From Candidatus Nanosyncoccus sp. (GTDB taxonomy: Bacteria > Patescibacteriota > Saccharimonadia > Saccharimonadales > Saccharimonadaceae), in the NCBI GenBank assembly GCA_045541215.1, contig JAZQIR010000007.1, positions 79,167-143,166 on the forward strand: a DNA stretch of 64,000 nt. The letters are read 5' to 3'. Position numbers and translations under genes: made by a program. The notes below the pieces were generated by a model. That model was not told the DNA's origin, ran no database searches, and saw only the letters and a program-made list of their open reading frames with translations. This document shows, in pieces, positions 10,089-32,375 of the stretch; position 1 is the stretch's first letter, and each line of letters begins with the position of its first letter.

Positions 10089-10119
10089 TATATACGAATC
10101 TGTTTTTAAACAGATTCGT

Positions 10120-10164
10120 GGTCCGGTAGCTCAGTTGGCATAAATCATGACAGCACGAGCCTCT
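10120..10164 (+). pseudogene. Duplicated 5' half of tRNA-Lys
   Basis: GGTCCGGTAGCTCAGTTGG (19/19) and AGCACGAGCCTCT (13/13) identical to the tRNA at 10211, separated by a 13-nt replacement; no T arm or acceptor 3' strand. Confidence 0.75.
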
Positions 10165-10210
10165 GGCGCTGAAAACCCGTCGCATGTTACGGTTAGTAAA
10201 TTATCAATTT

Positions 10211-10287
10211 GGTCCGGTAGCTCAGTTGGTTAGAGCACGAGCCTCTTAAGCTTGGTGTCGTGGGTTCGAGCCCCACCCGGATCACCA
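10211..10287 (+). tRNA. tRNA-Lys (anticodon CTT)
   Basis: Cloverleaf GGTCCGG/CCGGATC, D stem GCTC/GAGC, anticodon loop CT-CTT-AA, T loop TTCGAGC, encoded CCA. Confidence 0.97.
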
Positions 10288-11906
10288 ACAGGGGAACCTG
10301 TGGAAAACTCAGGTTCGAAGATGAAATTAAATGGTGATTTATATCTGTAAATCACCCTTTTTTGTGCATCAATTTCGAGGTTCTTTAACCTATTTCTGAC
10401 CAAAATGTCCTTTTCGACGAGATCTCCTTTTTCTAACCTGTTAATTAGCGAATTTAGCGAGTTCGAAAACTTTTCGATGGTCATGCGCAATTTTTCAGGA
10501 TTCTTGATTTTGGCTTCAATTTGCTTGATTCTTTCGTCGATATTTACAACATCATTTTGCAAATCCGCCATGTCCTTTTTGAGCTTGTCTTTGACGGCTT
10601 TTGGCGATTCTTTGTCGAGTTCGGCGTACTTTTCCGCGAGGTCGTCAATCTTTCTTTGTTTCTGTGTTTTCTGGCCGAGTAGCTCGTGTTTCTCGACACT
10701 TAGCTCCTGCATCTTCTTGTTGGCATATTCGGTCATGTCGTCGACAAAGCTCGTAAAATCGTATTTCTGGCTGATACGGCCGAATTCCTCGTAGAGTTGG
10801 TCCATGATGACATGCATGCGCACGTTGTTATTTGGACGCGTACAGGCTTTGTTATGGCATCGATAATTGAGGTAATACGTACCAGAATGTCCGCGGTTTC
10901 TGGCCGGTATCATATAGTGGCCACATACCGAGCATTTGATTAGGTGGCGGAACGGCAGGAAGTATTTGCCATGCGTGGCTTTTTGATTCTCGTAGCAGGA
11001 AGATTGGATCGAGCCACGGTCTTTTCTAAACATTTTCTGAACCTGGTCGAATTCTTCTTCGGTTACCATTGGCTTGAAGTTTGGCGTGACTACGCGTAAG
11101 TCTACATAGTTGCGGCCTTGCTCTAAGATTCCGTAGTAGAACGGATCGTGGAAGATGCGGTTTGCGGTGCTTTCGCAGACGCCGTAGCTTCTGACGTGTT
11201 TGTTTCGGCGTGATAATTTTGTAGAGCGTTCCACGTTGTTCATCTTCCAGTAGCGGTAAACTTCCATTTGTGACGCGCCATTTAGAATCATTTGCCAGCC
11301 TTTCTGGATCATCTTGAAGTTCTTGTCTGGCTTGTAATAACCGGATACATCGTCTCTAATGTAGCCCCACTTCGGCATACCGCCGGACTTACCTTGTTCG
11401 AGGTTAGAATCGACACCGCGTTGCACGCTTTCAGACAAATGCTCTGAGTATTGTTTTGAAAGCGCAAAGAGCATGTTTAGCGTCAGCTTGCCGCTTGAAT
11501 CGTTATGGAATTCGAAAGTCGGGAAACGCAGGTCTTTGATGACTCCGTTATCGACCATATCGACAACCATTCCGGCTTCGAGCGAGTTACGTGAAAGGCG
11601 GTCTGGGTGCCAGGCGAGAATGGCATCGTATTTGCCTTTCTCGATATCTTTTAACATCTGCGAGAAAAGCGGACGATTGCCGGATTTCTTCGCGGATTTA
11701 GATTCTTGGATCGGTTCGCCAACTAGAAGCAAACCATGATTATTCGCATATTCTTTGCAATCTGCGATTTGGTCTGGTAATGATTTGGCTTGAGCTTCGG
11801 CATCTTCGGAAGATTTACGCACGTAGAGTACGTAGCGTAACGGTTTCTGAACTATGCCGCTACTCGCATTAATTAGTGCTCTATTCATAGTTTTAGAACA
11901 CGACAA
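10230..11906 (-). CDS. Large serine recombinase (resolvase, recombinase, Zn-ribbon and coiled-coil domains); last 18 codons are antisense tRNA
   Basis: YVRKSS catalytic motif, AWHPDRLSRN, FHDPFYYG, CSVCGH...YRCHNKAC; start may be ATG 11888. Confidence 0.95.
   Translation of the reverse strand: MSCSKTMNRALINASSGIVQKPLRYVLYVRKSSEDAEAQAKSLPDQIADCKEYANNHGLLLVGEPIQESKSAKKSGNRPLFSQMLKDIEKGKYDAILAWHPDRLSRNSLEAGMVVDMVDNGVIKDLRFPTFEFHNDSSGKLTLNMLFALSKQYSEHLSESVQRGVDSNLEQGKSGGMPKWGYIRDDVSGYYKPDKNFKMIQKGWQMILNGASQMEVYRYWKMNNVERSTKLSRRNKHVRSYGVCESTANRIFHDPFYYGILEQGRNYVDLRVVTPNFKPMVTEEEFDQVQKMFRKDRGSIQSSCYENQKATHGKYFLPFRHLIKCSVCGHYMIPARNRGHSGTYYLNYRCHNKACTRPNNNVRMHVIMDQLYEEFGRISQKYDFTSFVDDMTEYANKKMQELSVEKHELLGQKTQKQRKIDDLAEKYAELDKESPKAVKDKLKKDMADLQNDVVNIDERIKQIEAKIKNPEKLRMTIEKFSNSLNSLINRLEKGDLVEKDILVRNRLKNLEIDAQKRVIYRYKSPFNFIFEPEFSTGSPVGDPGGARTHDTKLKRLVL
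10333..10363 (+). terminator. Intrinsic terminator for the tRNA transcript, embedded antisense in the LSR gene
   Basis: GGTGATTTA-tatctg-TAAATCACC followed by CTTTTTT. Confidence 0.7.
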
Positions 11907-12048
11907 CTACTCCGTCGTCGCACACTCCTTTCTCTTTGTTGGATTCGCGTTCTGGCGAATCGTCTATGTCGTCTAATGCGCAAAGTAATTGCACTAGGTT
12001 TTTGACGGCTTCTTTTCGGTCTTCTACGACCGGCTGTTCCTTTTGCAT
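11893..12048 (-). CDS. Small 51-aa acidic ORF just upstream of the LSR (not in the ORF track)
   Basis: MQKEQPVVEDRKEAVKNLVQLLCALDDIDDSPERESNKEKGVCDDGVVVVF*; stop lies 4 nt before ATG 11888. Confidence 0.45.
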   Translation of the reverse strand: MQKEQPVVEDRKEAVKNLVQLLCALDDIDDSPERESNKEKGVCDDGVVVVF

Positions 12049-12303
12049 TTAAGGTACATACTTTCTTTCTCCACCCGAAGTGTTGCCATTCGGCAAGTAT
12101 CACTTGTAGTGCAGAATCTGCGCATAAAATATGAGGGGCTACCCCCTCTCGTCTTTCGAAAGGCGCAGAGCCTGCGCCGCAATTAACATAAGTATATTAC
12201 AAGAGTTCGAAAAAGACAAGCATAAGCGTTTTAGTAGAGTGGGGAGATATATGCTTAGCGGTTTGCATATCTGTTATTTGATGAGTTCGAACTTAAAGTG
12301 TTT

Positions 12304-13530
12304 TTATCTTAAAATGTTTGCCGAAGTGACTCGTTCTTTATGCTTATGAATATAGTTAGCCATGTTGTCATTATAATGATTAGTTTTTATCATAAAGTGT
12401 TCAGATTGTGTTTCGCCCGTACTTTCTAAGTTATTAGAATACACATCTCCAATTGAACCAAAAGAATAACTGATGTAATTTCGGTCGTTATCGTCTTGGA
12501 CAAAGCTCCCTACTTTTAATTCACGATCATTAAAGTAAATAATGCCGTATTCAAACATTTTGTCGTGATTTGCACATAGCCAGAAACCGTTGTCACCATC
12601 GGTCGCTCTTCGGTTCTTTTCTTTTATACTGTATGATTCATTATGATCAATGTCAGTAACGCGCTCTATGTGGGAGCCAATGATCATGTGTTCTATATCA
12701 CAGCCACAAATGTAGCAGCGTTTTTCCCCATACTTTTCTAGTAGATTGAAGTGGAAGAGTGGTGTATCTCGGCTTGTTTCACGAGTTATTGGAACTTTGA
12801 CTTTTCCGTGGTCTAATTCGATCGTTTCGCCAAAGTCAATTCCTTCTTCTTCAAGTATCTCGATTTGATCTTCTGAGAGCGATTTTGAACCATTATCGAC
12901 TACCTGATAAAAAACAATAACCTTATCTGAAATTGCGACAAGGGTAAGTGCAAGAATGAAAGATTCCATCGCGTTTGCCCCAAATGTTTTTCCGTAAATT
13001 GATATTTGGTTAATGCCACGGTCGTTACTTTCATCTACAAAATATGTCTGTTGATTATGAGTATTGCGTTCACTCGTTTTATTCCTGTAGGATTTTAAAT
13101 CATCATATGATTCAAAAGGAGTTATGTCGGCTAGTCCGAGTTCGTCTTCATTGAGAATTTTAATGCCCATGGTTAAAAAACATCTATAGAACATTTTCGA
13201 ATAATTTGTTCTATCGTTATGATCCGGATCTATAACAAAAATATTAAAATCCTTATTTGCGCCATCGAATTTTTTATAATCCACATACGCTGGAGACACA
13301 TACTGCATGAGACGAGAGTTGCGCCCCTCGTTTGCATGCTTTTTAGATAGACATACAAAATGCGTGAATTGCCCATTGCCTTCTCTAATCTTAATATAAC
13401 GTCCATCTCTTCGGTCTTCTGTCGTAGTTGTGTATTCATTCACTCCATACAATCTGGAGACTATTGCAGATATTACGGAGTCTGCTATCTCTGAGTGTGG
13501 CCCACGATTTGGCAATATTACTTCTATCAT
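12304..13530 (-). CDS. HNH endonuclease, probable restriction subunit
   Basis: C-terminal CYICGC..IGSHI..GDNGFWLCANHDKMFE; ATGA overlap with the MTase stop. Confidence 0.8.
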   Translation of the reverse strand: MIEVILPNRGPHSEIADSVISAIVSRLYGVNEYTTTTEDRRDGRYIKIREGNGQFTHFVCLSKKHANEGRNSRLMQYVSPAYVDYKKFDGANKDFNIFVIDPDHNDRTNYSKMFYRCFLTMGIKILNEDELGLADITPFESYDDLKSYRNKTSERNTHNQQTYFVDESNDRGINQISIYGKTFGANAMESFILALTLVAISDKVIVFYQVVDNGSKSLSEDQIEILEEEGIDFGETIELDHGKVKVPITRETSRDTPLFHFNLLEKYGEKRCYICGCDIEHMIIGSHIERVTDIDHNESYSIKEKNRRATDGDNGFWLCANHDKMFEYGIIYFNDRELKVGSFVQDDNDRNYISYSFGSIGDVYSNNLESTGETQSEHFMIKTNHYNDNMANYIHKHKERVTSANILR

Positions 13531-15398
13531 TCCTCTCTCCTTTTATAGTTAGTAACTAATATTTCTTTTCTTCCTTTTCTAGCGACTTTATTGTATTCTA
13601 TGACATTGAAATTATTATCTTTAATCCATTTATTTAGCAATGTATTATGTTTTCCATTATGCTCCAGCACGTTAGAAAGTATAAATTTGATACCTTTATC
13701 GTTGGCCTTATTGAGAAAAGCATAGAGCCGCTTTTCATCAGATTCATTCCAGCCATTAAACCCCCTTTTTCCATCATTATAGCTTCCGAGCGTAATGAGA
13801 TATGGTGGATCGCAATATAAGAATGTCCCATCCTCAAAATATTGCTCCATATTCTCAAAATCGCCAGAGCAGATAAGAAGATTCTGTTCTTGCATTCGTC
13901 GACAAAAACTGATTAATTTTGACAACATGATATCATTAAAGCCAGCAGGGCCGACTGGGTTATTATAGTCGTATGAAGAATTAAAGCGAATTTGCTGATT
14001 GAAACCATACATAATTAGCACGTATAACATTTTCAAATCACGCCTATCTAGCGGCGTAGTATTATATTTGTCGCGTAGTTTTAAGTATGCTTCTTTTGCG
14101 CCAGGTTCTAGCTTATATCTTTTTACGGTCCTAGTTATATACCTGACAAGTTCGGCGGTATCGGTGTTTTTAAAGCATTCTAAAAGTCTAGCTACCATAA
14201 AGTTATAGTCGTTGTAGATAATTTGTTCAGCCTCTATATTTGCTCCAACACTATAACCGCCGCCAAAAACATCTATAAAACGTTGGATGCTTTCATTTGG
14301 TAGGTTATCTTTTATGAAATCAACTAGATCATATTTGCCACCTTGGTAATTTAGCGGCGACGCATATTTTGCCTCTAGATATGGCTTTTTCTCAATAAAG
14401 AATAAATATTCGCAATGCTCGTCTTCGGAATATGTCTGATGGTTTCGGTATTTCTTGTATGGTATCTTTTTTAGGCAATATGTTTCTTCTTTACCATATC
14501 GTTTCAATGTATTTTCTATGAATTTTTTCGACATTAACCCGTCGGAACTGTAGCTAAGAATAATGTATTTAAAATCCGCTTTTGCAATAATGAAATCAAA
14601 AACCTGCTCTACTTCGCCTTGCCTTGAAAATGCAGAGGAAGTTTCAGAAGTATTTCTAAGGCCGCCTTTTCCGTTTATTGTAGGGTTATCATATTTAGCA
14701 ATGGTTTCTAGTAGATGGTATTGAACAGAATACTGATTCTTTGTGTATGGTGGATCGAGGTATAGAATATCGCCACTGATTTCGCAGATTAGCTCCTCAA
14801 TGGTTTCATTTCTTACTTCGCTTTTGCATACTGGGTTGGATGGAGTCGATTCAACATGAATAAACGGCATGCGTTTTACAGCCCTTGGATCCCATGTTTT
14901 AAGGTATGATCCATATACTCCGGCAATATTGGCCACTTTGGATGCGGATTCGATTAACGCCGCTAGAAGATAATAATATTCCTTGTCGTTGATCTTTTCA
15001 GTTTTATACCAACTCTCTATTTTTGTGCGAATAAAATCGATTCGCTTACCGTTTTCGGTAGAGAAATACATTCTGTTTCCACTTCCGCCATCAGAATATT
15101 CGTTGAATATAAATCCTTCAATACCTTCGTCAGTATCGTTGAAATATTTAAATGGATCTAGCCCCAATTTAGGGAAGGTCATGTCTGGAGTATTTAGTTT
15201 TGCCTGCGTAATCACATAGCTGTAATATTGAACATCGTTAGCTGCTATTCGAAATTTATCTTTAAAATAATCGCCAACGGCAGCAGTTCCACTAAAGGCG
15301 TCGCAGAATGTTAAGTTGGAGTCATTTAAAATCCCTTGCTGTTTTATAAAATCAGCAATCTCTGAAAGAAGGTCTGTTTTTGCTCCTATATACCTCAT
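13527..15398 (-). CDS. Tandem two-domain N6-adenine DNA methyltransferase (D12/FokI-like)
   Basis: Domain 1 MRYIGAK, DAFSGTAAV, YLDPPY; domain 2 SPLNYQGGK, DVFGGGYSV, YCDPPY. Confidence 0.92.
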   Translation of the reverse strand: MRYIGAKTDLLSEIADFIKQQGILNDSNLTFCDAFSGTAAVGDYFKDKFRIAANDVQYYSYVITQAKLNTPDMTFPKLGLDPFKYFNDTDEGIEGFIFNEYSDGGSGNRMYFSTENGKRIDFIRTKIESWYKTEKINDKEYYYLLAALIESASKVANIAGVYGSYLKTWDPRAVKRMPFIHVESTPSNPVCKSEVRNETIEELICEISGDILYLDPPYTKNQYSVQYHLLETIAKYDNPTINGKGGLRNTSETSSAFSRQGEVEQVFDFIIAKADFKYIILSYSSDGLMSKKFIENTLKRYGKEETYCLKKIPYKKYRNHQTYSEDEHCEYLFFIEKKPYLEAKYASPLNYQGGKYDLVDFIKDNLPNESIQRFIDVFGGGYSVGANIEAEQIIYNDYNFMVARLLECFKNTDTAELVRYITRTVKRYKLEPGAKEAYLKLRDKYNTTPLDRRDLKMLYVLIMYGFNQQIRFNSSYDYNNPVGPAGFNDIMLSKLISFCRRMQEQNLLICSGDFENMEQYFEDGTFLYCDPPYLITLGSYNDGKRGFNGWNESDEKRLYAFLNKANDKGIKFILSNVLEHNGKHNTLLNKWIKDNNFNVIEYNKVARKGRKEILVTNYKRREE

Positions 15399-15581
15399 CT
15401 ATTATTATTATACCACGAGAACACCTTAAAACGGCGTCGGCACCACAAGAAATATATCAATTTTGATATACTTTTCCACAATATTATACCGTTTCGTGTC
15501 AAGAAAAAAATTCACCTCTGTTTCTTGCGCAATAACTTTTAAAACCCGATTGCAATCAAGTGGATGCTATCTATTGACTAA

Positions 15582-16031
15582 TTACCAGAATGTTTTATTA
15601 GAATCGTGACCGCAATGCACGATATCTTCCGGCTCCGCCCAAAGCGAAAGCTTGTGTACGCGCCATTTTCCAATGAAGAACATCTGGACCATTACGTCGT
15701 TTACGTCACGGTTATTTAGTGCGCGTGGAATGTATGCAAGCGAGAAATGATACCAAGTGTCGTCTTCGCTGTCTAACCGTGCAAAAACGCGCTTACCGCG
15801 GCCTAAAAGACGCACATCAAAGCGTTGAGCTAGAGTTTCTAGGGAATAAGTCTTGAGCTCGTGAATCGCGTCGCGAACAGGGGAGTAGGTAAGCTCCATA
15901 CGTTCGAGCTTGTCATAATCACGCGAATTAAACTTGCCATTATGTTCAAGCATAAAGCTTTCTAGTTGCCGAGCGGTAACCAGTATCGGTTCGCCGGGCT
16001 TTACTTTTTTGAATGTGTGGCGTTTTGCCAT
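15582..16031 (-). CDS. Hypothetical element-backbone protein (149 aa)
   Basis: GAGG RBS; truncated paralog at 19060-19245. Confidence 0.75.
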   Translation of the reverse strand: MAKRHTFKKVKPGEPILVTARQLESFMLEHNGKFNSRDYDKLERMELTYSPVRDAIHELKTYSLETLAQRFDVRLLGRGKRVFARLDSEDDTWYHFSLAYIPRALNNRDVNDVMVQMFFIGKWRVHKLSLWAEPEDIVHCGHDSNKTFW

Positions 16032-16076
16032 AGTTTACCTCGTTTCTTTGAGGTTGCGCCTAATAGGCGGTGTGCT

Positions 16077-17645
16077 TTATTCGTTTGCAATGTTTTTTAT
16101 AAGCTGAATTTCTACTTTATATCCCAGCCCACTTAGTTGCCTATTGATATTCCTAAGTGTCACTTTACTGAAAAAAGGAATGTCAAATCGCTCAATTTTA
16201 CTGGTTATAATTGCAAAGATAACTTTTCTTTTTTTGTTTGAATCATTATGAAAATTTCCTCCAGTAATCTCTTCTGCTTTTCGCAAAAATGCCGGATCGT
16301 TTCGTATTAATTCGCCCGATACGTAGCCTTGGTTAAAAAGATGGCTAAGAGCTGAAGACCCAGTGTATTTTTTCACATGTATTAAGTCACCCTCTCGCGT
16401 TTGGACATCGCAAACTTCAATCTTACTATGGCTACTACCATAAGGTATATTTTCCCCATCGTAGCATTTTCCACCTAAAACATTTGCCAATTCCTTGTTA
16501 TATTCCGCTTCTCGTTCATGATGGTAATCTATAAAATCATGCTTCTTTGTTATATCTTCATATGATTTGTTAATTTGTTTACAAAAATCATTTGCTATTT
16601 CATACCATCTACCGTTTATCAGAAGAAACACTTTGTTATTGGATGTAATTTCTGCGTATAGACATTTATACGCATTCCATCGGTCAAGCGTTTTTGACTC
16701 ATCTTCTGCCGATATTGCTGATATTTTTAATCCCTTCAAGGACTCTAGAGAGATATTGTTGCCCAGTGCTTCAATGATATAAGCCTTTTCAATATCGTCA
16801 TATTTCTTTGCTCTCTTATTATCGCCAAACCTAAATTGATATACGTCTACATAATCTATGTAATCGGGAACTGCGGCCCAAACTTTATCTGTATTTGAAG
16901 GCTCTGATGAGTTTGTTGACAGTATTTGGATTAATCGATCATTCAAGGTTTTTGTTTCTTCTTTATCTTTAACATCCTGTATTTGATCGACCCAATCAAA
17001 ATCTTTTTTGTATTCATCGCTTTCATATGCTTCAATAATGTCGTTGGCAACATCAGATATGGTATGTATATTGCAATGAAGGCGCAATGATAATGATTCC
17101 GATCCGGCTGCCGTTGTTCCTAACTTCGTAGCCCATTTGGATTTTATTTTTCCAGTCAATCCTTTAATAAGATCTTGTTCTGAACTAATCCCAAATTCTG
17201 ACGCATTTGCCGTTTTTGCAAGCTGCTCTTTTGCATTTTTTGGATTGGACTCCAAAACTGTCTTAGAGAAATTCTTAACTTCATCGCTGTCAATAATATT
17301 TAATGCCGTTCTAAGTCCAAACCTTACGTCCATAGAATCGGTTTTTAGCAAATAGCGTCCAGATCCAAATGAAAAGGCTAGCTCTTCTTTGTTTTTGCCA
17401 ATATTCTTAACGATGACAACTAGCTTTGCCGAAGAGGTGAAATATGATTTCAATTTATCTTTATCTTGAATTTGGAAAAATTGTTTTAAATAACTCGGTT
17501 CTGCATGAAATGATTCTTCGCTATAAATTATCACGTTTTGATTTATTCGGCTAAATTGTTTTGCTCTATCTGACAATTCGTTCCCAATAAAAGAGCTCTT
17601 TATTCTGAAAGCGACTATCTTATTGATTGGGATTTCTTTGTCCAT
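16077..17645 (-). CDS. DUF6119/TIGR04141-like mobilome protein with a PD-(D/E)xK-like C-terminus
   Basis: FSFGSGRYLL, RFGLRTALN, IEVCD..LIHVKK..SSALSHLFNQGYVS. Confidence 0.8.
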   Translation of the reverse strand: MDKEIPINKIVAFRIKSSFIGNELSDRAKQFSRINQNVIIYSEESFHAEPSYLKQFFQIQDKDKLKSYFTSSAKLVVIVKNIGKNKEELAFSFGSGRYLLKTDSMDVRFGLRTALNIIDSDEVKNFSKTVLESNPKNAKEQLAKTANASEFGISSEQDLIKGLTGKIKSKWATKLGTTAAGSESLSLRLHCNIHTISDVANDIIEAYESDEYKKDFDWVDQIQDVKDKEETKTLNDRLIQILSTNSSEPSNTDKVWAAVPDYIDYVDVYQFRFGDNKRAKKYDDIEKAYIIEALGNNISLESLKGLKISAISAEDESKTLDRWNAYKCLYAEITSNNKVFLLINGRWYEIANDFCKQINKSYEDITKKHDFIDYHHEREAEYNKELANVLGGKCYDGENIPYGSSHSKIEVCDVQTREGDLIHVKKYTGSSALSHLFNQGYVSGELIRNDPAFLRKAEEITGGNFHNDSNKKRKVIFAIITSKIERFDIPFFSKVTLRNINRQLSGLGYKVEIQLIKNIANE

Positions 17646-17735
17646 TCATGGGCTCCTTTTATAGCCTAATTATATCATAGAAAGCAATAATTCTTAAATT
17701 TGTCAAACTGCTTATGGCTACCTTCGTTATTGATT

Positions 17736-17986
17736 CATTGACATTGTAATTCATTTATTTTCTCCATTGTCATTGTTTTAGGCCTTTCTGGCTCCAGGTA
17801 AGCTAGAAATCTCTAAAAGTTCGAATCTCTTTGCCTGTATATGTATACCTCAGAACTCGCATGGCATCAGAATAGGGTAGTCTTTCTTAGGTATAACCTT
17901 GATCTTGGCAGTGTATTCGGGGTGGTCAATACACCAGTCTACAACCATGCAAAGCCGAGCAACAACGTCTGGTCGCCCCTCACCAA
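17736..17986 (-). repeat. P arm copy 1: CATTG box, displaced LSR C-terminal tail (17850-17985) and core
   Basis: Near-identical to 18633-18883; minus frame GEGRPDVVARLCMVVDWCIDHPEYTAKIKVIPKKDYPILMPCEF*. Confidence 0.85.
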
Positions 17987-18026
17987 ATGAAGAAATTATT
18001 GAATCCGCCGAAAGGCGGTGTTTTTA
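17987..18026 (+). terminator. B'-type arm with plus-strand terminator
   Basis: ATGAAGAAATTATTGAAT then CCGCC-gaaa-GGCGG and TGTTTTTT; recurs at 21223 and 31886. Confidence 0.8.
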
Positions 18027-18042
18027 TTTATTTGGGAGTTAT

Positions 18043-18582
18043 TTATGCGCAGTTCTTTTTATGCGCTTTGAGCTTTTTCATTGCCCAGTCGTAGTGGGAA
18101 GATAGACAACTCACAAAATACGAGCCAAGCACTGAACCGCCAACCCAAGGATACATACCTTTTGTAAATAATTGCTCTTCGCTAAGACTTTCGGCTAGTT
18201 TCATGACGTCTTTATGTGATTTTTCAAACATTTTTCTTGCGTCTTCGAGCGAAGTCTTTTGATGTTTCTTCCAGTATTCGACGTTCATATCGCCGTAAGT
18301 CTTCCAAGTGTATGGTTCTGGCAAGAATGGCGCATTACCGCCTTTATTCAGATTCGTATCTACGAATTCAAGTAGCATTCGGTGCCATTCATATAGGTGT
18401 ACCCAAATATCGCGTAGATTCTTGTCACGTCCCCAGTGGCGTTCTTTCTTCGATGGATCGCCGGAGAAATCGAATTCGGTATTCATTTCTTTCTCGCTCA
18501 TTGAATCAGCCATTTCAATCAGCTTGGCGTAGTATTCTTCGCCAGCCTTTAATAAGTCCTGTTTGTTGCGTGGTCTTGGCAT
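18043..18582 (-). CDS. ClbS/DfsB-family four-helix bundle protein (DUF1706-like)
   Basis: MPRP.NK.DLL, HLYEWH, PY.WK.Y, SSHYDWA.KK. Confidence 0.8.
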   Translation of the reverse strand: MPRPRNKQDLLKAGEEYYAKLIEMADSMSEKEMNTEFDFSGDPSKKERHWGRDKNLRDIWVHLYEWHRMLLEFVDTNLNKGGNAPFLPEPYTWKTYGDMNVEYWKKHQKTSLEDARKMFEKSHKDVMKLAESLSEEQLFTKGMYPWVGGSVLGSYFVSCLSSHYDWAMKKLKAHKKNCA

Positions 18583-18632
18583 AAATAAGTCCTTGTTTAC
18601 TACTTTAATTATATCATCGGGTGCAAGTCTGC

Positions 18633-18883
18633 CATTGACATTGTATTTCTTTTATTTTCTCCATTGTCGTTGTTTTAAGCCTCTCCAGCTCCAGCTAAGC
18701 TAAAAATCTCTAAAAGTTCGAATCTCTTTGCCTGTATATGTATACCTCAGAATTCGCACGGCATCAGAATAGGGTAATCCTTTTTAGGTATAACCTTGAT
18801 CTTGGCTGTGTATTCGGGGTGGTCAATGCACCAGTCCACGACCATGCAAAGCCGAATAAGTATGTCTACTCGCCCCTCACCAA
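18633..18883 (-). repeat. P arm copy 2: CATTG box, LSR C-terminal tail (18747-18882) and core; intact P-P' junction
   Basis: Reads ...FSTGSPVG|EGRVDILIRLCMVVDWCIDHPEY...MPCEF* across the core. Confidence 0.85.
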
Positions 18884-19073
18884 CAGGGGAACCTGTGGAA
18901 AACGAAGGGCGGAAGATGAAATTAAATGGTGATTTATATCTGTAAATCACCTTTTTTATGCATCAATTTCGAGGTTCTTTAACCTATTTCGTACCAAAAT
19001 GTCCTTTTCGCTCGCCCCTTGGGACGCGAATAGCCGGAGGCTAACGAGATCTCCTTTTTCTAACCTGTTAATT
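18884..19073 (-). pseudogene. Remnant of an LSR gene 3' end with a 33-bp insertion (19011-19043)
   Basis: Aligns to 10289-10446; fused at 19073 to the backbone-gene fragment. Confidence 0.85.
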
Positions 19074-19245
19074 CGTGAATCGCGTCATGAACTGGCGAAT
19101 CTTTCAGTTCCATACGCTCGAACTTATCGTAATCGCGTGAATTGAATCTGCCATTATGCTCGAGCATGAAACTTTCGAGCTCACGAGCAGTAACCGGTAT
19201 TGGCTCGCCGGGTTTAGCTTTCTTGAATTTGCGACGTTTCATCAT
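19060..19245 (-). pseudogene. N-terminal fragment of the 149-aa backbone protein
   Basis: MMKRRKFKKAKPGEPIPVTARELESFMLEHNG matches 15582-16031; cut by the deletion junction. Confidence 0.85.
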
Positions 19246-19298
19246 TATCTCCTTTCTTTTAAGGAGTGCGCCCTAGGCGGTATATTCTATTTAATGAA

Positions 19299-21203: not shown

Positions 21204-21262
21204 TCTGGTCGCCCCTCACCAAATGAAGGTATTATTAAACCCGCCGTAGTGCGGTGTTTTTT
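21204..21262. repeat. att-like junction (short P arm, core, B' terminator)
   Basis: TCTGGTCGCCCCTCACCAAATGAAG identical to 17968-17992; hairpin CCGC-cgtagt-GCGG-TGTTTTTT. Confidence 0.85.
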
Positions 21263-21753
21263 TATTCTGTACTTAAGTTAACGGAAACGTTCCCGCCGTC
21301 TAATTCTGGTAGGTTATTAATGTGTCCAATCTTTGAGTAACTATAACTTGTATCGAATGATTCATAGAAGATTACGAGACAGTTATCACCAAATAACATT
21401 ACGTCACCGGCTTCGATATGCTTCGAGCTATAAGTATTTGTTGGTAGAGATTCATTTAAATATACATATTTTTCATTACCATTTAAGTCATTCATTGAAA
21501 GTTCTAGCGGTAATAGTTTTATTAAGGCTGAAGTCGTAGAGTTATTCTCTAAATCTATTTCAAGTTTCTTGTTGTTAATATTTATATAAACTTTATCCAT
21601 AGTCATTTCCTCATTATCTATTAATTGATTTGTTTCGGGCGAAAGATTTGGATCTTTGTCTGATTCTTTATTATTCATCATGATTGTTGTAACGACAACT
21701 GAAACGATTATTACAATCAAGATTGGAATAGAAATAGCTAGCTTTTTATTCAT
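21262..21753 (-). CDS. Cyclophilin-like fold protein, membrane-anchored
   Basis: LENNSTT.AL...LPL.L.M.DLNGNEK, GDVMLFGDNCLVIFY..F.TSYSYSKIG. Confidence 0.8.
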   Translation of the reverse strand: MNKKLAISIPILIVIIVSVVVTTIMMNNKESDKDPNLSPETNQLIDNEEMTMDKVYININNKKLEIDLENNSTTSALIKLLPLELSMNDLNGNEKYVYLNESLPTNTYSSKHIEAGDVMLFGDNCLVIFYESFDTSYSYSKIGHINNLPELDGGNVSVNLSTE

Positions 21754-26985: not shown

Positions 26986-27050
26986 CAATGCACCAGTCCA
27001 CCACCATGCAAAGCCGAATAAGGCAGTCTCTCGCCTCTCGCCAAATGAAG
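26986..27050. repeat. Degenerate att-like junction
   Basis: CAATGCACCAGTCCACCACCATGCAAAGCCGAATAAG matches the P arm; core TCGCCAA, then ATGAAG; 1-nt deletion near the core. Confidence 0.75.
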
Positions 27051-27103
27051 ATGCACGTAATATATAGCAATTAAAACATCACTGATTATGATATAATTTA
27101 CTT

Positions 27104-27802: not shown

Positions 27803-29947
27803 TTAGGCAAAGTAGTGTGGCATTCTCAAGCCGTCCGGATCGACACCAACAGAATGCTGAATGATTGGGTGCGTATAATGTGCCGAATCGAACCCGAAGT
27901 TGATAGGTACAAGCCAAGGGCTGAATACGCGGACGACCTTAATATCCGATTTTCTATCGGACAGATCCACTGTTACAAGTTGCAGGTGTTCATTATAGAA
28001 CCAATTAAGGCTCTTTACTACCATGCTCTCCTGAATGTGGCTCTCGGAGATCATATTTTTCCAAAGCCAATGAAGCTTGTCGGCATTTTCCTTGAAGTAG
28101 TAAACCTTTCCATGATCTGCTGGCGTAGAAACACTAAACGGATCTATTGGTGTCATATCTGGATAACGCAAAGCTAACAGAAGATTGTATTCCGCTTCCT
28201 GCGCAGACTTCAGAATCGCATCATCTACGGATTTTTTATCGATCGTAGCCGCTGCTCCGCTTACGAAACATGGATATTCATCGCCGACAATTACCGTCTC
28301 AAAGACCATTCCGAAATCACTTGGAATTTGAAGAACAATCAATTGGCGTTTTTGCTTCAAGAAGTGAGTAATACGCTTTCTGACATGAATCGGGAGGATC
28401 CTTTCATCGACTCGATACGGAGATTCCTGAGAAAACCAGTTACACATCAACGCATCGCGTTCAATTAGTTCGATGACGGCTCGTTTCTTGGCTTCGTCAA
28501 AGTCAAAATGAGCTGCAATGCCAGATGAATTGCCATAGTAAATGCGGTTTTTGTCATCTTTCTGACCATAATAAACTAAATCCGACGGAACATAAATTTC
28601 AGAGCCGTCATAATTAGTCCCCAATGTCCAGTTGATAACAAGATCGTTCGTAAAGAACTTTACCCCGCACTTTTTAGCTTGTTCTTCCGTAAGCGGAAAA
28701 TACACTTTTGGGTCAAGCCATTTACCTGGCACTTGATTTGCTGAGCCGTGGAAGTCCACTCGCACCTGACTAGATTGGTAGCGTTCGTAGCCCTCAATAG
28801 TCGCCTTGAAAACGGCGTCCGCATAAGATGGACTAGTCGCTCCAGCATATTGAATGTTGCCACTTTCATCTAGATACGTAGTTGTAGCTCCAAAGAATGA
28901 ACCATCACTATCAAATACGCGTGTCCATACGTCTTTAACTGGATGATCTGCGCCAACACGCTCCTCAACGAAACGAATCTTATTAAACTGCTCCGTTTCG
29001 AAGCCTGCTGGGTAACCTACCGGAATTGCGATTATGGGCCAAATATTACCAGAGAGCTCAAGCTCTTGCTTCAATGGTCCATCCTGAACACCACCCATCT
29101 CGCAAGCACCAAGACCTTGCTCGGCACAATAGAGGCTAATGTTTTCAGCAACATGACCTACTTCAATGAGCGTCAAGCGATAGCCACGATTAGCGTACTT
29201 GTATGGCTGACGCTCAAGATCTGCCGCAATGACGATTTGCACAGAAGAGCCAAAAGGCATTTCTTCCTGGTTAAAACAGTATTTCAGTTGCTCAACATCG
29301 ACCTCGTCACTGAAGCAGACAAGACGATTTTGTTCGGCGTCATACTCGTAGTAACCAGGTTCAAGTCCATCTTGTGGTTTTTCGATTAGCACATAAATCC
29401 TAAGCGGATAGAGTGCTCCGCCACTCGGTACCGAATGATCAGGGATCGAGTAGGCGAAGTGGCAAATACTACCGATTTGATTAACTGTCATCTTCCTCTC
29501 TGAAAAAGAGCGACAAGAGCGTCGATTTTCCCTGACCCAGGATAGCGCCGAAGATGTGTCGCAATCAAACTGGATAACCTCACCAGACTTAATCGGCAAC
29601 CTTTCACTTTTAGTGTAGGCTTCGACCTCGTCTTGAGTAAGATTCGAGTTGATAGCGGACGGGTAGTTACTGATACGATGAAAATGCATGAACTGATGCC
29701 TTGAATCAACAATAAGTTCCATATCCTCTAGTTCAACGAGAATTTCCATCACTTCATCTTTTGGTAAGCCAGAAGACTCAATGATAGAGGAAACATTCGT
29801 ATATCCATTGCAAAAGCCCAAAATCTTCCAAACTTCATCAGCCATATCGTGACCGATGTCTATCTGGTTCTCGCGATGGAGGAATCTTATCCCTCCTTTA
29901 TATGGAACCGCTGAAACCACTAAGATTGGGATAAAATTGATGTCCAT
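27803..29947 (-). CDS. Fused wHTH/RRE-like + SagB/ThcOx dehydrogenase + YcaO cyclodehydratase
   Basis: RRSCRSF, PSGGALYP, RGYRLTLIEVGHVAENI (SagB); KATIEGYERY, NSSGIAAH, ELIERDA, C-terminal MPHYFA (YcaO). Confidence 0.9.
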   Translation of the reverse strand: MDINFIPILVVSAVPYKGGIRFLHRENQIDIGHDMADEVWKILGFCNGYTNVSSIIESSGLPKDEVMEILVELEDMELIVDSRHQFMHFHRISNYPSAINSNLTQDEVEAYTKSERLPIKSGEVIQFDCDTSSALSWVRENRRSCRSFSERKMTVNQIGSICHFAYSIPDHSVPSGGALYPLRIYVLIEKPQDGLEPGYYEYDAEQNRLVCFSDEVDVEQLKYCFNQEEMPFGSSVQIVIAADLERQPYKYANRGYRLTLIEVGHVAENISLYCAEQGLGACEMGGVQDGPLKQELELSGNIWPIIAIPVGYPAGFETEQFNKIRFVEERVGADHPVKDVWTRVFDSDGSFFGATTTYLDESGNIQYAGATSPSYADAVFKATIEGYERYQSSQVRVDFHGSANQVPGKWLDPKVYFPLTEEQAKKCGVKFFTNDLVINWTLGTNYDGSEIYVPSDLVYYGQKDDKNRIYYGNSSGIAAHFDFDEAKKRAVIELIERDALMCNWFSQESPYRVDERILPIHVRKRITHFLKQKRQLIVLQIPSDFGMVFETVIVGDEYPCFVSGAAATIDKKSVDDAILKSAQEAEYNLLLALRYPDMTPIDPFSVSTPADHGKVYYFKENADKLHWLWKNMISESHIQESMVVKSLNWFYNEHLQLVTVDLSDRKSDIKVVRVFSPWLVPINFGFDSAHYTHPIIQHSVGVDPDGLRMPHYFA

Positions 29948-30540: not shown

Positions 30541-30631
30541 TCATTGTTTTAAGCCCTCACCAACAGGAGAACTCGTGGAAAACTCAGGTTCGAAAACTTT
30601 TCTAGGCCCAAGCGCAATTTTTCAGGGTTCT
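30541..30631. repeat. att-like junction: half CATTG box, core, internally deleted LSR 3' remnant
   Basis: TCATTGTTTTAAGCC|CTCACCAACAGG; right part matches 10289-10319 then 10461-10504 via GTTCGAA microhomology. Confidence 0.8.
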
Positions 30632-31661: not shown

Positions 31662-31924
31662 ATTGACATTGTAGGAATAAGTTATTCCTTTACATTGGTT
31701 CAATGTTCATTTCCTTGTGATTCCTGATCAGAACGTAACATCTACTAAAACAGGGTAGTCCTTCTTCGTTATGACCTTTGTCTTAGGGTTGTATTCTGGA
31801 TGCTCAAACATCCAATCGATCACGTTATAGAGGCGGAGCATTATCTCGTCTGCTGCATCAATAAGTTCTCTGCAACGTTCACCAAATGAAGAAATTATTG
31901 AACCCGCCGCAAAGCGGCGTTTTT
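31662..31924. repeat. Divergent P arm (LSR tail 31728-31883), core and B' terminator
   Basis: Minus frame GERCRELIDAADEIMLRLYNVIDWMFEHPEYNPKTKVITKKDYPVLVDVTF*; CACCAAATGAAGAAATTATTGAA; CGCCGC-aaa-GCGGCG-TTTTT. Confidence 0.8.
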
Positions 31925-32375
31925 ATTTAAGCGCTTTGACCGCTTTCAGTAACTCTGCAGTAGCTTTTCTGTCTGTGTTGTCTTGATATGTTACTTTCTC
32001 TTTGGTGACCATTTCAACTACTTTACGGCCAACAAAACCCATTTTTGACGGGTTGGTGCCACCTTCAAAACAGTATAGTGGAGTGTCGCCTAGTTTATTA
32101 TCTTCGGCCATTTTCTTTAAGTCTACTTTGGCTTTCGGTGTAAAGCCAACACCAAATACGATCAATCGCTTTGGAGCGAAGCTTTTAATTTTTTTGTACC
32201 CACTAATTACCCCACCAAATATCCACCCGCCATGAATCACGAGATCGTATTTTGCGACATCTTTAGAGGAAACATTTTTTATATCTTTCGTTTCACAGTT
32301 TAGTTCTTCGGCAATCCATTTTGCATACTTTTTCGTAAATCCAGTTTTGCTTTTATAAGTAACTAAAATTTTCAT
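31923..32375 (-). CDS. Flavodoxin-domain protein
   Basis: YKSKTGFTKKYAKWIAEEL, GGWIFGG. Confidence 0.85.
   Translation of the reverse strand: MKILVTYKSKTGFTKKYAKWIAEELNCETKDIKNVSSKDVAKYDLVIHGGWIFGGVISGYKKIKSFAPKRLIVFGVGFTPKAKVDLKKMAEDNKLGDTPLYCFEGGTNPSKMGFVGRKVVEMVTKEKVTYQDNTDRKATAELLKAVKALK

Follow-up and report, generated by a model that had tools for sequence, protein, structure and literature searches.

Archaeal tyrosine integrases of the SSV1 type (Fuselloviridae and archaeal plasmids) carry the crossover site inside the recombinase open reading frame (ORF) and target tRNA genes; integration leaves the parts of the ORF at either end of the element, and the full ORF is regained on excision. 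In the integration-dependent immunity of mycobacteriophages (BPs, Brujita and M. abscessus prophages), attP likewise lies in a gene, often at a tRNA 3' end, and the free and integrated products differ at the C-terminus alone (20–35 residues), which acts as a state sensor, with the virally encoded product bearing a C-terminal degradation tag that integration removes (PMC8092301). Here we analyse a stretch of 64,000 nucleotides from Candidatus Nanosyncoccus sp. (Saccharimonadaceae; GCA_045541215.1, contig JAZQIR010000007.1, positions 79,167 to 143,166; hereafter the window, to which all coordinates refer), in which a 7.7-kb unit at a tRNA-Lys gene appears to be an integrative element whose large serine recombinase (LSR) gene spans its own attP, such that integration would exchange the C-terminus of the enzyme.

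Unit 1 of the window has the SSV1-type layout, with the LSR at 10230–11888 and a C-terminal extension (the tail) at 17850–17984, and four loci from other genera (L078 to L081) show the same arrangement with matching frames. The differences are that a serine recombinase of a bacterium of the candidate phyla radiation (CPR) is involved here and a tyrosine recombinase of an archaeon there, and that only a module of about 45 aa beyond a complete fold is detached, not an inactivated int(N)/int(C) pair. A C-terminal switch of the mycobacteriophage kind is also seen: the long form has a 44-aa tail where the short form has 18 aa of antisense tRNA. In the mycobacteriophages, however, the repressor is split and the integrase is usually a tyrosine enzyme, whereas here the recombinase itself is split; the tail ends in LMPCEF rather than in an ssrA-like xxxAA, and is a conserved module of at least 33 residues. 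With this locus, attP-split genes, known from archaeal tyrosine integrases and from the repressors of mycobacteriophages, are extended to the serine recombinases of bacteria.

Direction control is the central problem in serine integrase biology and in its use for genome writing, and to our knowledge all characterised serine integrase systems need a separate, hard-to-predict recombination directionality factor (RDF). The phage serine integrases (phiC31/gp3, Bxb1/gp47, SPbeta SprA/SprB) have the same resolvase, recombinase, zinc-ribbon and coiled-coil architecture as the LSR described here. In these canonical systems the int ORF does not include attP, and the RDF is a separate protein, whereas here a natural appendage would be gained and lost by recombination itself. 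Engineered integrase-RDF fusions indicate that a C-terminal appendage can control directionality (PMC5737554; 10.1101/2025.05.02.651858; PDB 9dxd). Full-text literature searches, in which absence is not proof, returned attP-split repressors and the engineered fusions and no LSR ORF spanning its own attP.

Layout of the tRNA-Lys locus

The genome holding the window comprises 880 kb in 32 contigs, and tRNA-Lys(CTT) is the sole tRNA of the window (ARAGORN). The CACCA 3' end of this tRNA forms the core TCACCAA (10282–10288), and TCACCA(A) is all that the junctions have in common. Among genus relatives, some orthologous tRNA-Lys sites are occupied and some are empty, the empty site consisting of tRNA-Lys followed by the tRNA's own terminator. 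The features that carry the argument are:

10211–10287, plus strand: tRNA-Lys(CTT), the attB target (ARAGORN; Rfam RF00005, 66.6 bits)
10230–11888, minus strand: LSR-1 in its integrated (short) isoform, 552 aa (Pfam domains, translation, about 50 database clusters of the 552-aa form)
10288–10453, minus strand: P' arm, which is the 3' coding end of LSR-1 (repeat families D8–D10, D14 and D16; blastn)
17850–17984, minus strand: tail copy 1, reading GEGRPDVVARLCMVVDWCIDHPEYTAKIKVIPKKDYPILMPCEF to the stop, at the far end of unit 1 (translation, copy comparison)
18747–18881, minus strand: tail copy 2, P arm of an 897-bp DUF1706 cassette at 17986–18883 (translation; DUF1706 by Pfam)
18877–19080, minus strand: fossil P-P' (attP-like) junction, core plus truncated LSR-1 3' stub (translation, blastn)
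31728–31883, minus strand: tail copy 3, divergent, joined to a terminator-type arm (tblastn, translation, alignment)

The geometry is the one that an earlier sequence-only reading of this DNA had inferred: the tail lies on the P arm and the LSR 3' end on the P' arm, with one frame at the core. LSR-1 is a 552-aa coding sequence when started at ATG (10230–11888), and its ORF extends to 10230–11906 with a TTG start. It overlaps tRNA-Lys, reading ...YRYKSPFNFIFEPEFSTGSPVG (that is, ...FSTGSPVG) and then, after crossing the core, DPGGARTHDTKLKRLVL to the stop; translation and the tRNA overlap bear out the earlier statement that its last 18 codons are antisense tRNA-Lys. Pfam domains Resolvase (PF00239, E 9e-23, residues 26–173), Recombinase (PF07508) and Zn_ribbon_recom (PF13408) assign LSR-1 to the large serine recombinases, and attP x attB catalysis is predicted. 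The R-x-S-S nucleophile motif is present (YVRKSSED), with R26, K27, S28 and S29 near-invariant and four cysteines invariant among 66 relatives. As the integrated form retains all LSR domains and is found intact in many genomes, the integrated copy is predicted to be a full-length and apparently functional LSR. The genome encodes one intact LSR of this clade.

Circularising 10288–17985 would join tail copy 1 in frame onto LSR-1. In the integrated state this copy has a stop upstream, and its sole start codon is an internal Met13 lacking a ribosome-binding site. Copies 1 and 2 both encode, on the minus strand, GEGR(P/V)D...RLCMVVDWCIDHPEYTAKIKVIPKKDYPILMPCEF to the stop, and the 251-nt repeat preceding the core at 18877 is 90% identical to 17736–17986. 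The other arm recurs as well: the sequence TCACCAA-CAGGGGAACCTGTGGAAAAC... of 10282 is found again at 18877, and the P' arm returns as an LSR stub at 18877–19080 and at 30557–30631. At 18883 the two arms meet, and the frame runs ...FSTGSPVG into EGRVDILIRLCMVVDWCIDHPEYTAKIKVIPKKDYPILMPCEF and the stop, in frame with tail copy 2 (67-aa ORF, 18747–18950). This P-P' junction reads GGTCGCCCCT-CACCAAC-AGGGGAACC, an imperfect inverted repeat. Copy 3 reads GERCRELIDAADEIMLRLYNVIDWMFEHPEYNPKTKVITKKDYPVLVDVTF to the stop, is 52% identical at the amino-acid level in alignment, and has a 21-nt in-frame insertion; it keeps the frame at the core GGT codon, as had been noted before. Relatives of its subfamily include P0116, P0118, P0122 and P0126. 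No tail was found by tblastn elsewhere in this genome outside the window.

LSRs that end in the tail

Full-length LSRs ending in the tail, a search that the sequence-only reading had proposed, were found on metagenome contigs. P0002 (578 aa; LSR-2, 48% identical to LSR-1) ends ...TEKSRSG followed by EGRVDVVARLCMVVDWCIDHPEYTAKIKVIPKKDYPVLMPCEF and was recovered on contigs from two samples, and P0053 (LSR-3) and P0064 (an LSR-4 fragment) likewise end in the tail, so that contiguous ORFs of LSR plus tail exist for three LSR lineages beyond LSR-1. On contig L001 what comes after the tail is the DUF1706 cassette also present in the window (92.8% identity). Orthologous tRNA-Lys genes of the genus show LSR-1, LSR-2, LSR-3 and a fifth lineage each passing through the core in one and the same GGT frame, and all five LSR lineages at tRNA-Lys, whether full-length or stub, have the GGT frame at the core. 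A 9-nt in-frame indel in the LSR linker keeps this frame, as does the 21-nt one in the tail. One Logan unitig (run X4) links the tail to the LSR 3' end, from 17958 to 10286.

The tail is placed beyond the complete LSR fold, because P0002 aligns with the SPbeta integrase over residues 23–507 of 578 and because the body predicted by AlphaFold2 (66 homologues) is complete without it: catalytic domain, recombinase domain and zinc ribbon are confident (body pLDDT, the predicted local distance difference score, 85–90), and are accompanied by coiled-coil helices (375–500) and a closing beta hairpin (501–516). Profile searches of the PDB with both tail alignments, main-family and group-2 (see below), gave chance-level matches only.

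Selection on the tail

The sequence-only reading had pointed to nine differences, all synonymous, between the copies at 17850 and 18747. This is confirmed for codons 12–44, the last 33 codons, where 9 of 9 differences are synonymous (9 changes at 18.3 synonymous sites and 0 at 80.7 non-synonymous sites; if changes fell at random, P about 2.6e-7). Codons 1–11 of the same pair differ at six more codons, non-synonymously. The analysis of selection on homologous tails that had been proposed gave the same picture: among 18 distinct main-family copies, from 15 of the 37 genomes of the genus, codons 12–44 have a pS of 0.44 and a pN of 0.022 (pN/pS 0.05), and entropy by codon position in the tail is 0.20, 0.16 and 0.73. 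These values indicate selection on the protein.

The tail begins with a short stretch of a different character. Codons 1–4 (GGTGAGGGGCGA) are fixed at the DNA level, and codons 5–11 (17951–17972 and 18848–18869) are hypervariable among hydrophobic alternatives (PDVVA, VDILI, VDYLI; VVA, ILI, YLI). We read codons 1–11 as a patch inside the putative recombinase-binding P arm; as codons 5–11 lie 14–27 nt from the core, where a zinc-ribbon domain would touch attP, their variation may reflect site specificity rather than protein function.

Integrated tail copies lie nearly all in open frames of just 50–70 codons, whose upstream parts are mutually unrelated, being terminator hairpins or the ends of other cassettes. 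A HMMER search of 1.84 billion representative proteins gave 86 tail-bearing ORFs, nearly all short and with unrelated N-termini, and no start codon is conserved among these 86. Independent translation was rejected as a conserved mode because Met13 lacks a Shine-Dalgarno sequence and is not shared by L015, the divergent subfamily or the distant tails. Together these comparisons show a tail that is, as predicted from its frames, untranslatable in the integrated state yet selected at the amino-acid level.

Three other readings of the tail DNA were considered and rejected. A plus-strand ORF over the tail (17841–17990) has a translation that varies freely between copies, the variable sites being its first codon positions. 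As a non-coding RNA the tail has no Rfam match, either at E ≤ 0.1 in 9800–34000 or at the gathering score in the whole window. That it is host (attB-side) sequence was considered since near-identical tails adjoin different LSRs, and was rejected because the far-side arms are species-specific tRNA terminators (attR) and because the tRNA-Leu elements described below place the tail on the element side. One non-recombinase protein, P0078 (206 aa), has no stop before the core and reads ...KTKNKNG into EGRPDVVARLCMVVDW... and on into the tail; any gene at a P' end can therefore acquire it.

The same layout across the order

A search seeded with P0002 gave 3108 relatives at E ≤ 1e-20, and C-termini were inspected among the best 120 of these. 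Every inspected C-terminus that reaches the core (41–100% identity) crosses T-GGT-G, the antisense of a tRNA end in ...CACCA or ...GCACCA; a few fragments end earlier. Most of the inspected C-termini stop 3–18 codons past the core (SGAPD, SGARDWT or GDPGGTRTHDTKLKRLVL, each followed by the stop), and four members are long, at 575–597 aa (P0163, P0187, P0190 and P0209), whose DNA has TGGTGCA exactly at the switch point. Long-form tails follow the pattern hydrophobic-E-L-I-x-x-I-x-(D/Q)-W-(L/C/W)-(F/I)-(E/D)-(N/H)-x-x-(Y/F). Profiles of the main tail and of the group-2 tails are homologous (hhalign probability 94.9%, E 4.7e-8, 27 columns), and unsaturated pairs of group-2 tails have a pN/pS of 0.12–0.27. 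A third homologue search, with the tail region of P0187, found only itself.

The group-2 tail was searched in six frames in 301 genomes of the order and is present as single copies in nine genomes, each of a different genus: eight other genera, and a weak partial match (profile positions 1–18) in a second genome of this genus. Four of these loci (L078 to L081), from four other genera, could be resolved, and each has a tRNA-Leu with an LSR abutting it whose last codons (SGARERT or LGADERT, then the stop) are antisense tRNA. An orphan tail (for example GATNAQTFELINRIAEWLYKNPDESIFKLPKLTLSEKQNQRLQQVYAY, then the stop) lies at the opposite end of the element, 3.4–8 kb off on the same strand; it starts at its own TGGTGCA core, in the frame that matches the LSR, and has no start codon of its own. 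The L078 tail has a stop directly upstream, a tRNA-terminator hairpin just before that stop and no Met at all. Going by these four loci, the geometry proposed for tRNA-Lys is repeated independently, at a different tRNA and in different families.

Two side observations concern group-2 members. Their tails (L078–L081 and L064–L067) end in ...EANYAY, ...EANYAF or ...QQVYAY. The long-form LSR P0190 (L064/L065) adjoins a TrwB/VirD4-type coupling protein, a Replic_Relax protein and a DNA methylase, and some members of the clade therefore probably belong to conjugative or mobilisable elements.

Proposed mechanism and alternative explanations

Our comparisons show an arrangement, conserved across the order, in which integration would swap the LSR C-terminus and the tail is under strong purifying selection. 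We propose that the 7.7-kb unit at 10288–17985 is an element that integrates at the CCA 3' end of tRNA-Lys and whose LSR gene reaches the crossover site without meeting a stop codon. When the element is excised (attP state), or when the P arm of another unit adjoins, the ORF would run 44–51 codons into the P arm, and the resulting long isoform would carry a conserved module at its C-terminus: first an amphipathic helix, ...RLCMVVDWCIDHPEY, and then KIKVIPKKDYP. Integration would shift this module to the element's other end and leave the LSR ending in a short antisense-tRNA peptide; excision would give the junction ...FSTGSPVG/EGRPDVV... and an empty site with tRNA-Lys joined to ATGAAGAAATT... 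Because the tail is predicted to be untranslatable when integrated, selection would act on it in the attP state only, and because the circle can encode the long form alone, it is the long form that would have to integrate the element into a new host (attP x attB). The tail would therefore be selected as part of an integration-competent recombinase. The short form, conserved intact, would be the form available for excision or maintenance, and removal of the tail would make it behave differently, most likely through altered directionality (excision-permissive or attenuated) or half-life.

That two isoforms exist and that the tail is functional is, in our judgement, highly probable; this part of the sequence-only reading gains support from the contiguous ORFs of LSR plus tail, the GGT frame in five lineages, the distant long forms and the tRNA-Leu elements. 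As the best explanation overall, an integrative element with an attP-spanning LSR gene and a tail selected in the integration-competent enzyme, we would give a probability of roughly 0.7. A role for the tail specifically in directionality is put forward tentatively. RDFs work when fused to the C-terminus of an LSR, and phiC31 integrase contacts its RDF through its extreme C-terminus (10.1101/2025.05.02.651858), so a C-terminal module can reach the directionality surface at the zinc-ribbon/coiled-coil hinge (PDB 9dxd). The most specific form of the idea is that the tail is a built-in sensor of integration state, the enzyme being a unidirectional integrase with it and excision-permissive or checked without it, with no separate RDF; we regard this form as rather doubtful. 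No RDF was recognised among the element backbone genes.

Several observations weigh against the proposed mechanism or limit it. The earlier claim about the junction at 18883 holds for the frame, which does pass from FSTGSPVG into the tail, but not for its status: it is a fossil tandem junction whose LSR is a dead stub of about 24 codons with stops upstream, not the live attP of LSR-1. As the genome has one intact LSR of the clade and the LSR at 18883 is a stub, the integrated DNA as it stands encodes no long isoform. The contigs of P0002, P0053 and P0064 are tandem junctions and not proven circles, and L001 to L003 are tandem P-P' junctions; L001 and L002 lack a terminal repeat and run on into the DUF1706 cassette. 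No circular junction with an intact LSR was captured among L001 to L003, the metagenome contigs or the Logan contigs. An exact-pattern scan for the LSR-1 P-P' junction found one metagenome contig, in which the LSR is decayed, and none among viral contigs, and in Logan contigs from four gut and manure metagenomes the unitigs are fragmentary, such that circle and tandem array are indistinguishable. In the AlphaFold2 model the tail has a pLDDT of 38–69 (50–69 for the helix at 536–554), with no confident docking. Codons 1–11 overall have a pN/pS of 1.7, with codons 5–11 as the variable patch. Finally, near-identical tails in the genus adjoin LSRs that are merely 48% identical, and also LSR-less cassettes, which argues that the tail does not co-evolve tightly with any one LSR. 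The tail-bearing arm is common to LSR-less cassettes and to at least five LSR lineages, and on this distribution we regard it as the common arm of the tRNA-Lys array and not the private property of one LSR.

The main rival assigns the tail a role in stability, as a degron or a protective cap, rather than in directionality. Mycobacteriophages offer a precedent: attP within a gene, integration-dependent C-termini and ssrA-like tags are described there (PMC8092301, citing Broussard 2013). The tails also end in non-polar residues (LMPCEF, VDVTF, EANYAY, ANYAF). Those of group 2 resemble the E. coli ssrA tag, which ends in ...ENYALAA, a hint of a degron. Purifying selection, however, spans the entire module of 33–48 residues including an internal helix with an invariant Trp, and this genome offers no tmRNA or tag peptide for comparison (ARAGORN and a regular-expression scan); we judge this explanation unlikely.

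We consider it very improbable that each cassette end encodes the tail as a separate micro-protein with its own start (for example Met13), acting for instance as a regulatory or RDF-like peptide. An ATG for Met13 is present in nearly all main-family copies, gene callers at times start there (P0103 to P0105 and P0109), and LSR-less cassettes too retain intact tails. Yet tail homologues with a start of their own, which by the sequence-only reading would have spoken against its two-isoform proposal, did not emerge from the 86 ORFs with their unrelated N-termini. Met13 is missing in L015, in window copy 3 and in P0122, P0163 and P0187, the Met-free L078 tail follows directly on a stop, and neighbouring genes have the Shine-Dalgarno sequence that Met13 lacks. 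The residues before Met13 are moreover conserved as amino acids (R10, L11 and C12; GERCxExxDA in the divergent subfamily). We give equally little credence to an incidental read-through, in which attP would lie at the LSR 3' end by chance, the P arm would be conserved as DNA for recombinase binding or regulation, and the extension would have no function. The DNA-level conservation of the first four codons, the lack of coding-type constraint over codons 1–11, the conservation of the neighbouring non-coding CATTG-box region and the decay of most internal LSRs at P-P' junctions would fit it. Against it stand the three-base periodicity of variation and the low pN/pS of codons 12–44, both signs that selection acts on the amino acids; about 25 bp per arm are enough for an LSR attP, the tail motif persists at 20–30% identity where the DNA is unalignable, and the indels in the tail (21 nt) and in the LSR linker (9 nt) keep the frame.

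The tandem array and its cargo

From 10288 to about 33700 the window is a tandem array at tRNA-Lys, comprising at least seven units and about 2.7% of the genome, and all units end in the tail arm or a stub thereof. One unit has the intact LSR, two have LSR stubs (18884–19080 and 30557–30631) and the rest are cargo-only with the tail arm. Units start with LSR stubs at 18884 and 30564, and with a terminator-type arm at 17986, 21223 and 31886. Further features of the array are:

17728–17849, strand not assigned: the CATTG-box region, a conserved non-coding stretch of the P arm (repeat families D1 and D4)
17980–18030, plus strand: attR-type junction, TCACCAA, ATGAAGAAATTATTGAA, hairpin CCGCC-GAAA-GGCGG and T-run, a tRNA-terminator-like arm (repeat families D5 and D6)
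26986–27044, minus strand: partial tail copy, DCLIRLCMVVDWCI, decayed thereafter (tblastn; repeat family D7)

The CATTG-box region differs at 9 of 114 nt between copies 1 and 2 and is also found upstream of cargo genes at 18625, 20341 and 33097. The attR-type junction is found again at 21216–21266 and 31879–31929, and in relatives the sequences upstream of the tail are species-specific terminator hairpins. The terminator-type arm follows the core three times (17986–18030, 21223–21266 and 31886–31929), with a short form at 27045–27051. If this arm is the native tRNA-Lys terminator (B'), plain attP x attB integrations do not account for its repeats within the array; it could instead be the P' arm of cassettes lacking an LSR. 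Just upstream of tRNA-Lys, 10119–10190 is a degenerate tRNA-Lys 5' half, with an exact 20-nt match that is then broken up; neither ARAGORN nor Rfam calls it.

The cargo includes a type II restriction-modification pair, DUF6119, DUF1706, TfoX_N with a zinc-ribbon protein, hydrolases, a deaminase, a cation-efflux transporter, flavodoxins and a fused nitroreductase-YcaO cassette gene (27803–29947, 714 aa). A 149-aa backbone gene (15582–16031) accompanies the LSR-1 element and is 75% similar to sequence next to the LSR stub of unit 3 (19073–19281); it has no Pfam, PHROG or PADLOC match and is a possible RDF or regulator. Unrelated metagenomes contain the LSR, the tail arm, this gene and the DUF1706 cassette in abundance and lack the intervening cargo, and related DNA is present in pig, bovine and goat gut and in manure metagenomes. 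Near-identical tails circulate among different LSRs and LSR-less cassettes, a distribution that fits arm exchange at a shared site.

An array akin to that of the window, around a frameshifted LSR-3 fused to the tail, is found on the 19-kb metagenome contig L003. Its defence genes comprise Thoeris ThsB-TIR, Shedu SduA_C, Hachiman HamA with a helicase, a restriction-modification system and AIPR, and such arrays appear to act as defence islands. Tandem units at one gene end are likewise known from staphylococcal cassette chromosomes (SCC/SCCmec; CcrAB, rlmH 3' end) and from tycheposon arrays at tRNA genes (10.1101/2020.12.28.424599), which share with this array the mix of units with a recombinase and many cargo-only units with the same site, and the defence and niche cargo. 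The array thus resembles, in a CPR genome, an accretion hotspot of either kind. No recombinase ORF crossing the site is described there, whereas here every unit, LSR-less ones included, keeps the coding tail arm.

Implications for Saccharibacteria and serine recombinases

The locus shows ultra-small CPR genomes (about 0.9 Mb) gaining and shuffling defence and accessory cassettes at tRNA genes. It also bears on annotation: the LSR C-terminus annotated in integrated genomes of this clade is an antisense-tRNA product, with the native C-terminus kilobases away. A recombination event that rewrites the C-terminus of its own recombinase could be a natural means of controlling direction, or protein stability, without an RDF. 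If the tail does prove to be a sensor of integration state, a whole clade of Saccharibacteria LSRs at tRNA CCA ends would be self-switching recombinases, and LSR-less cassettes would keep the tail arm as a supply of C-termini for any LSR that lands alongside.

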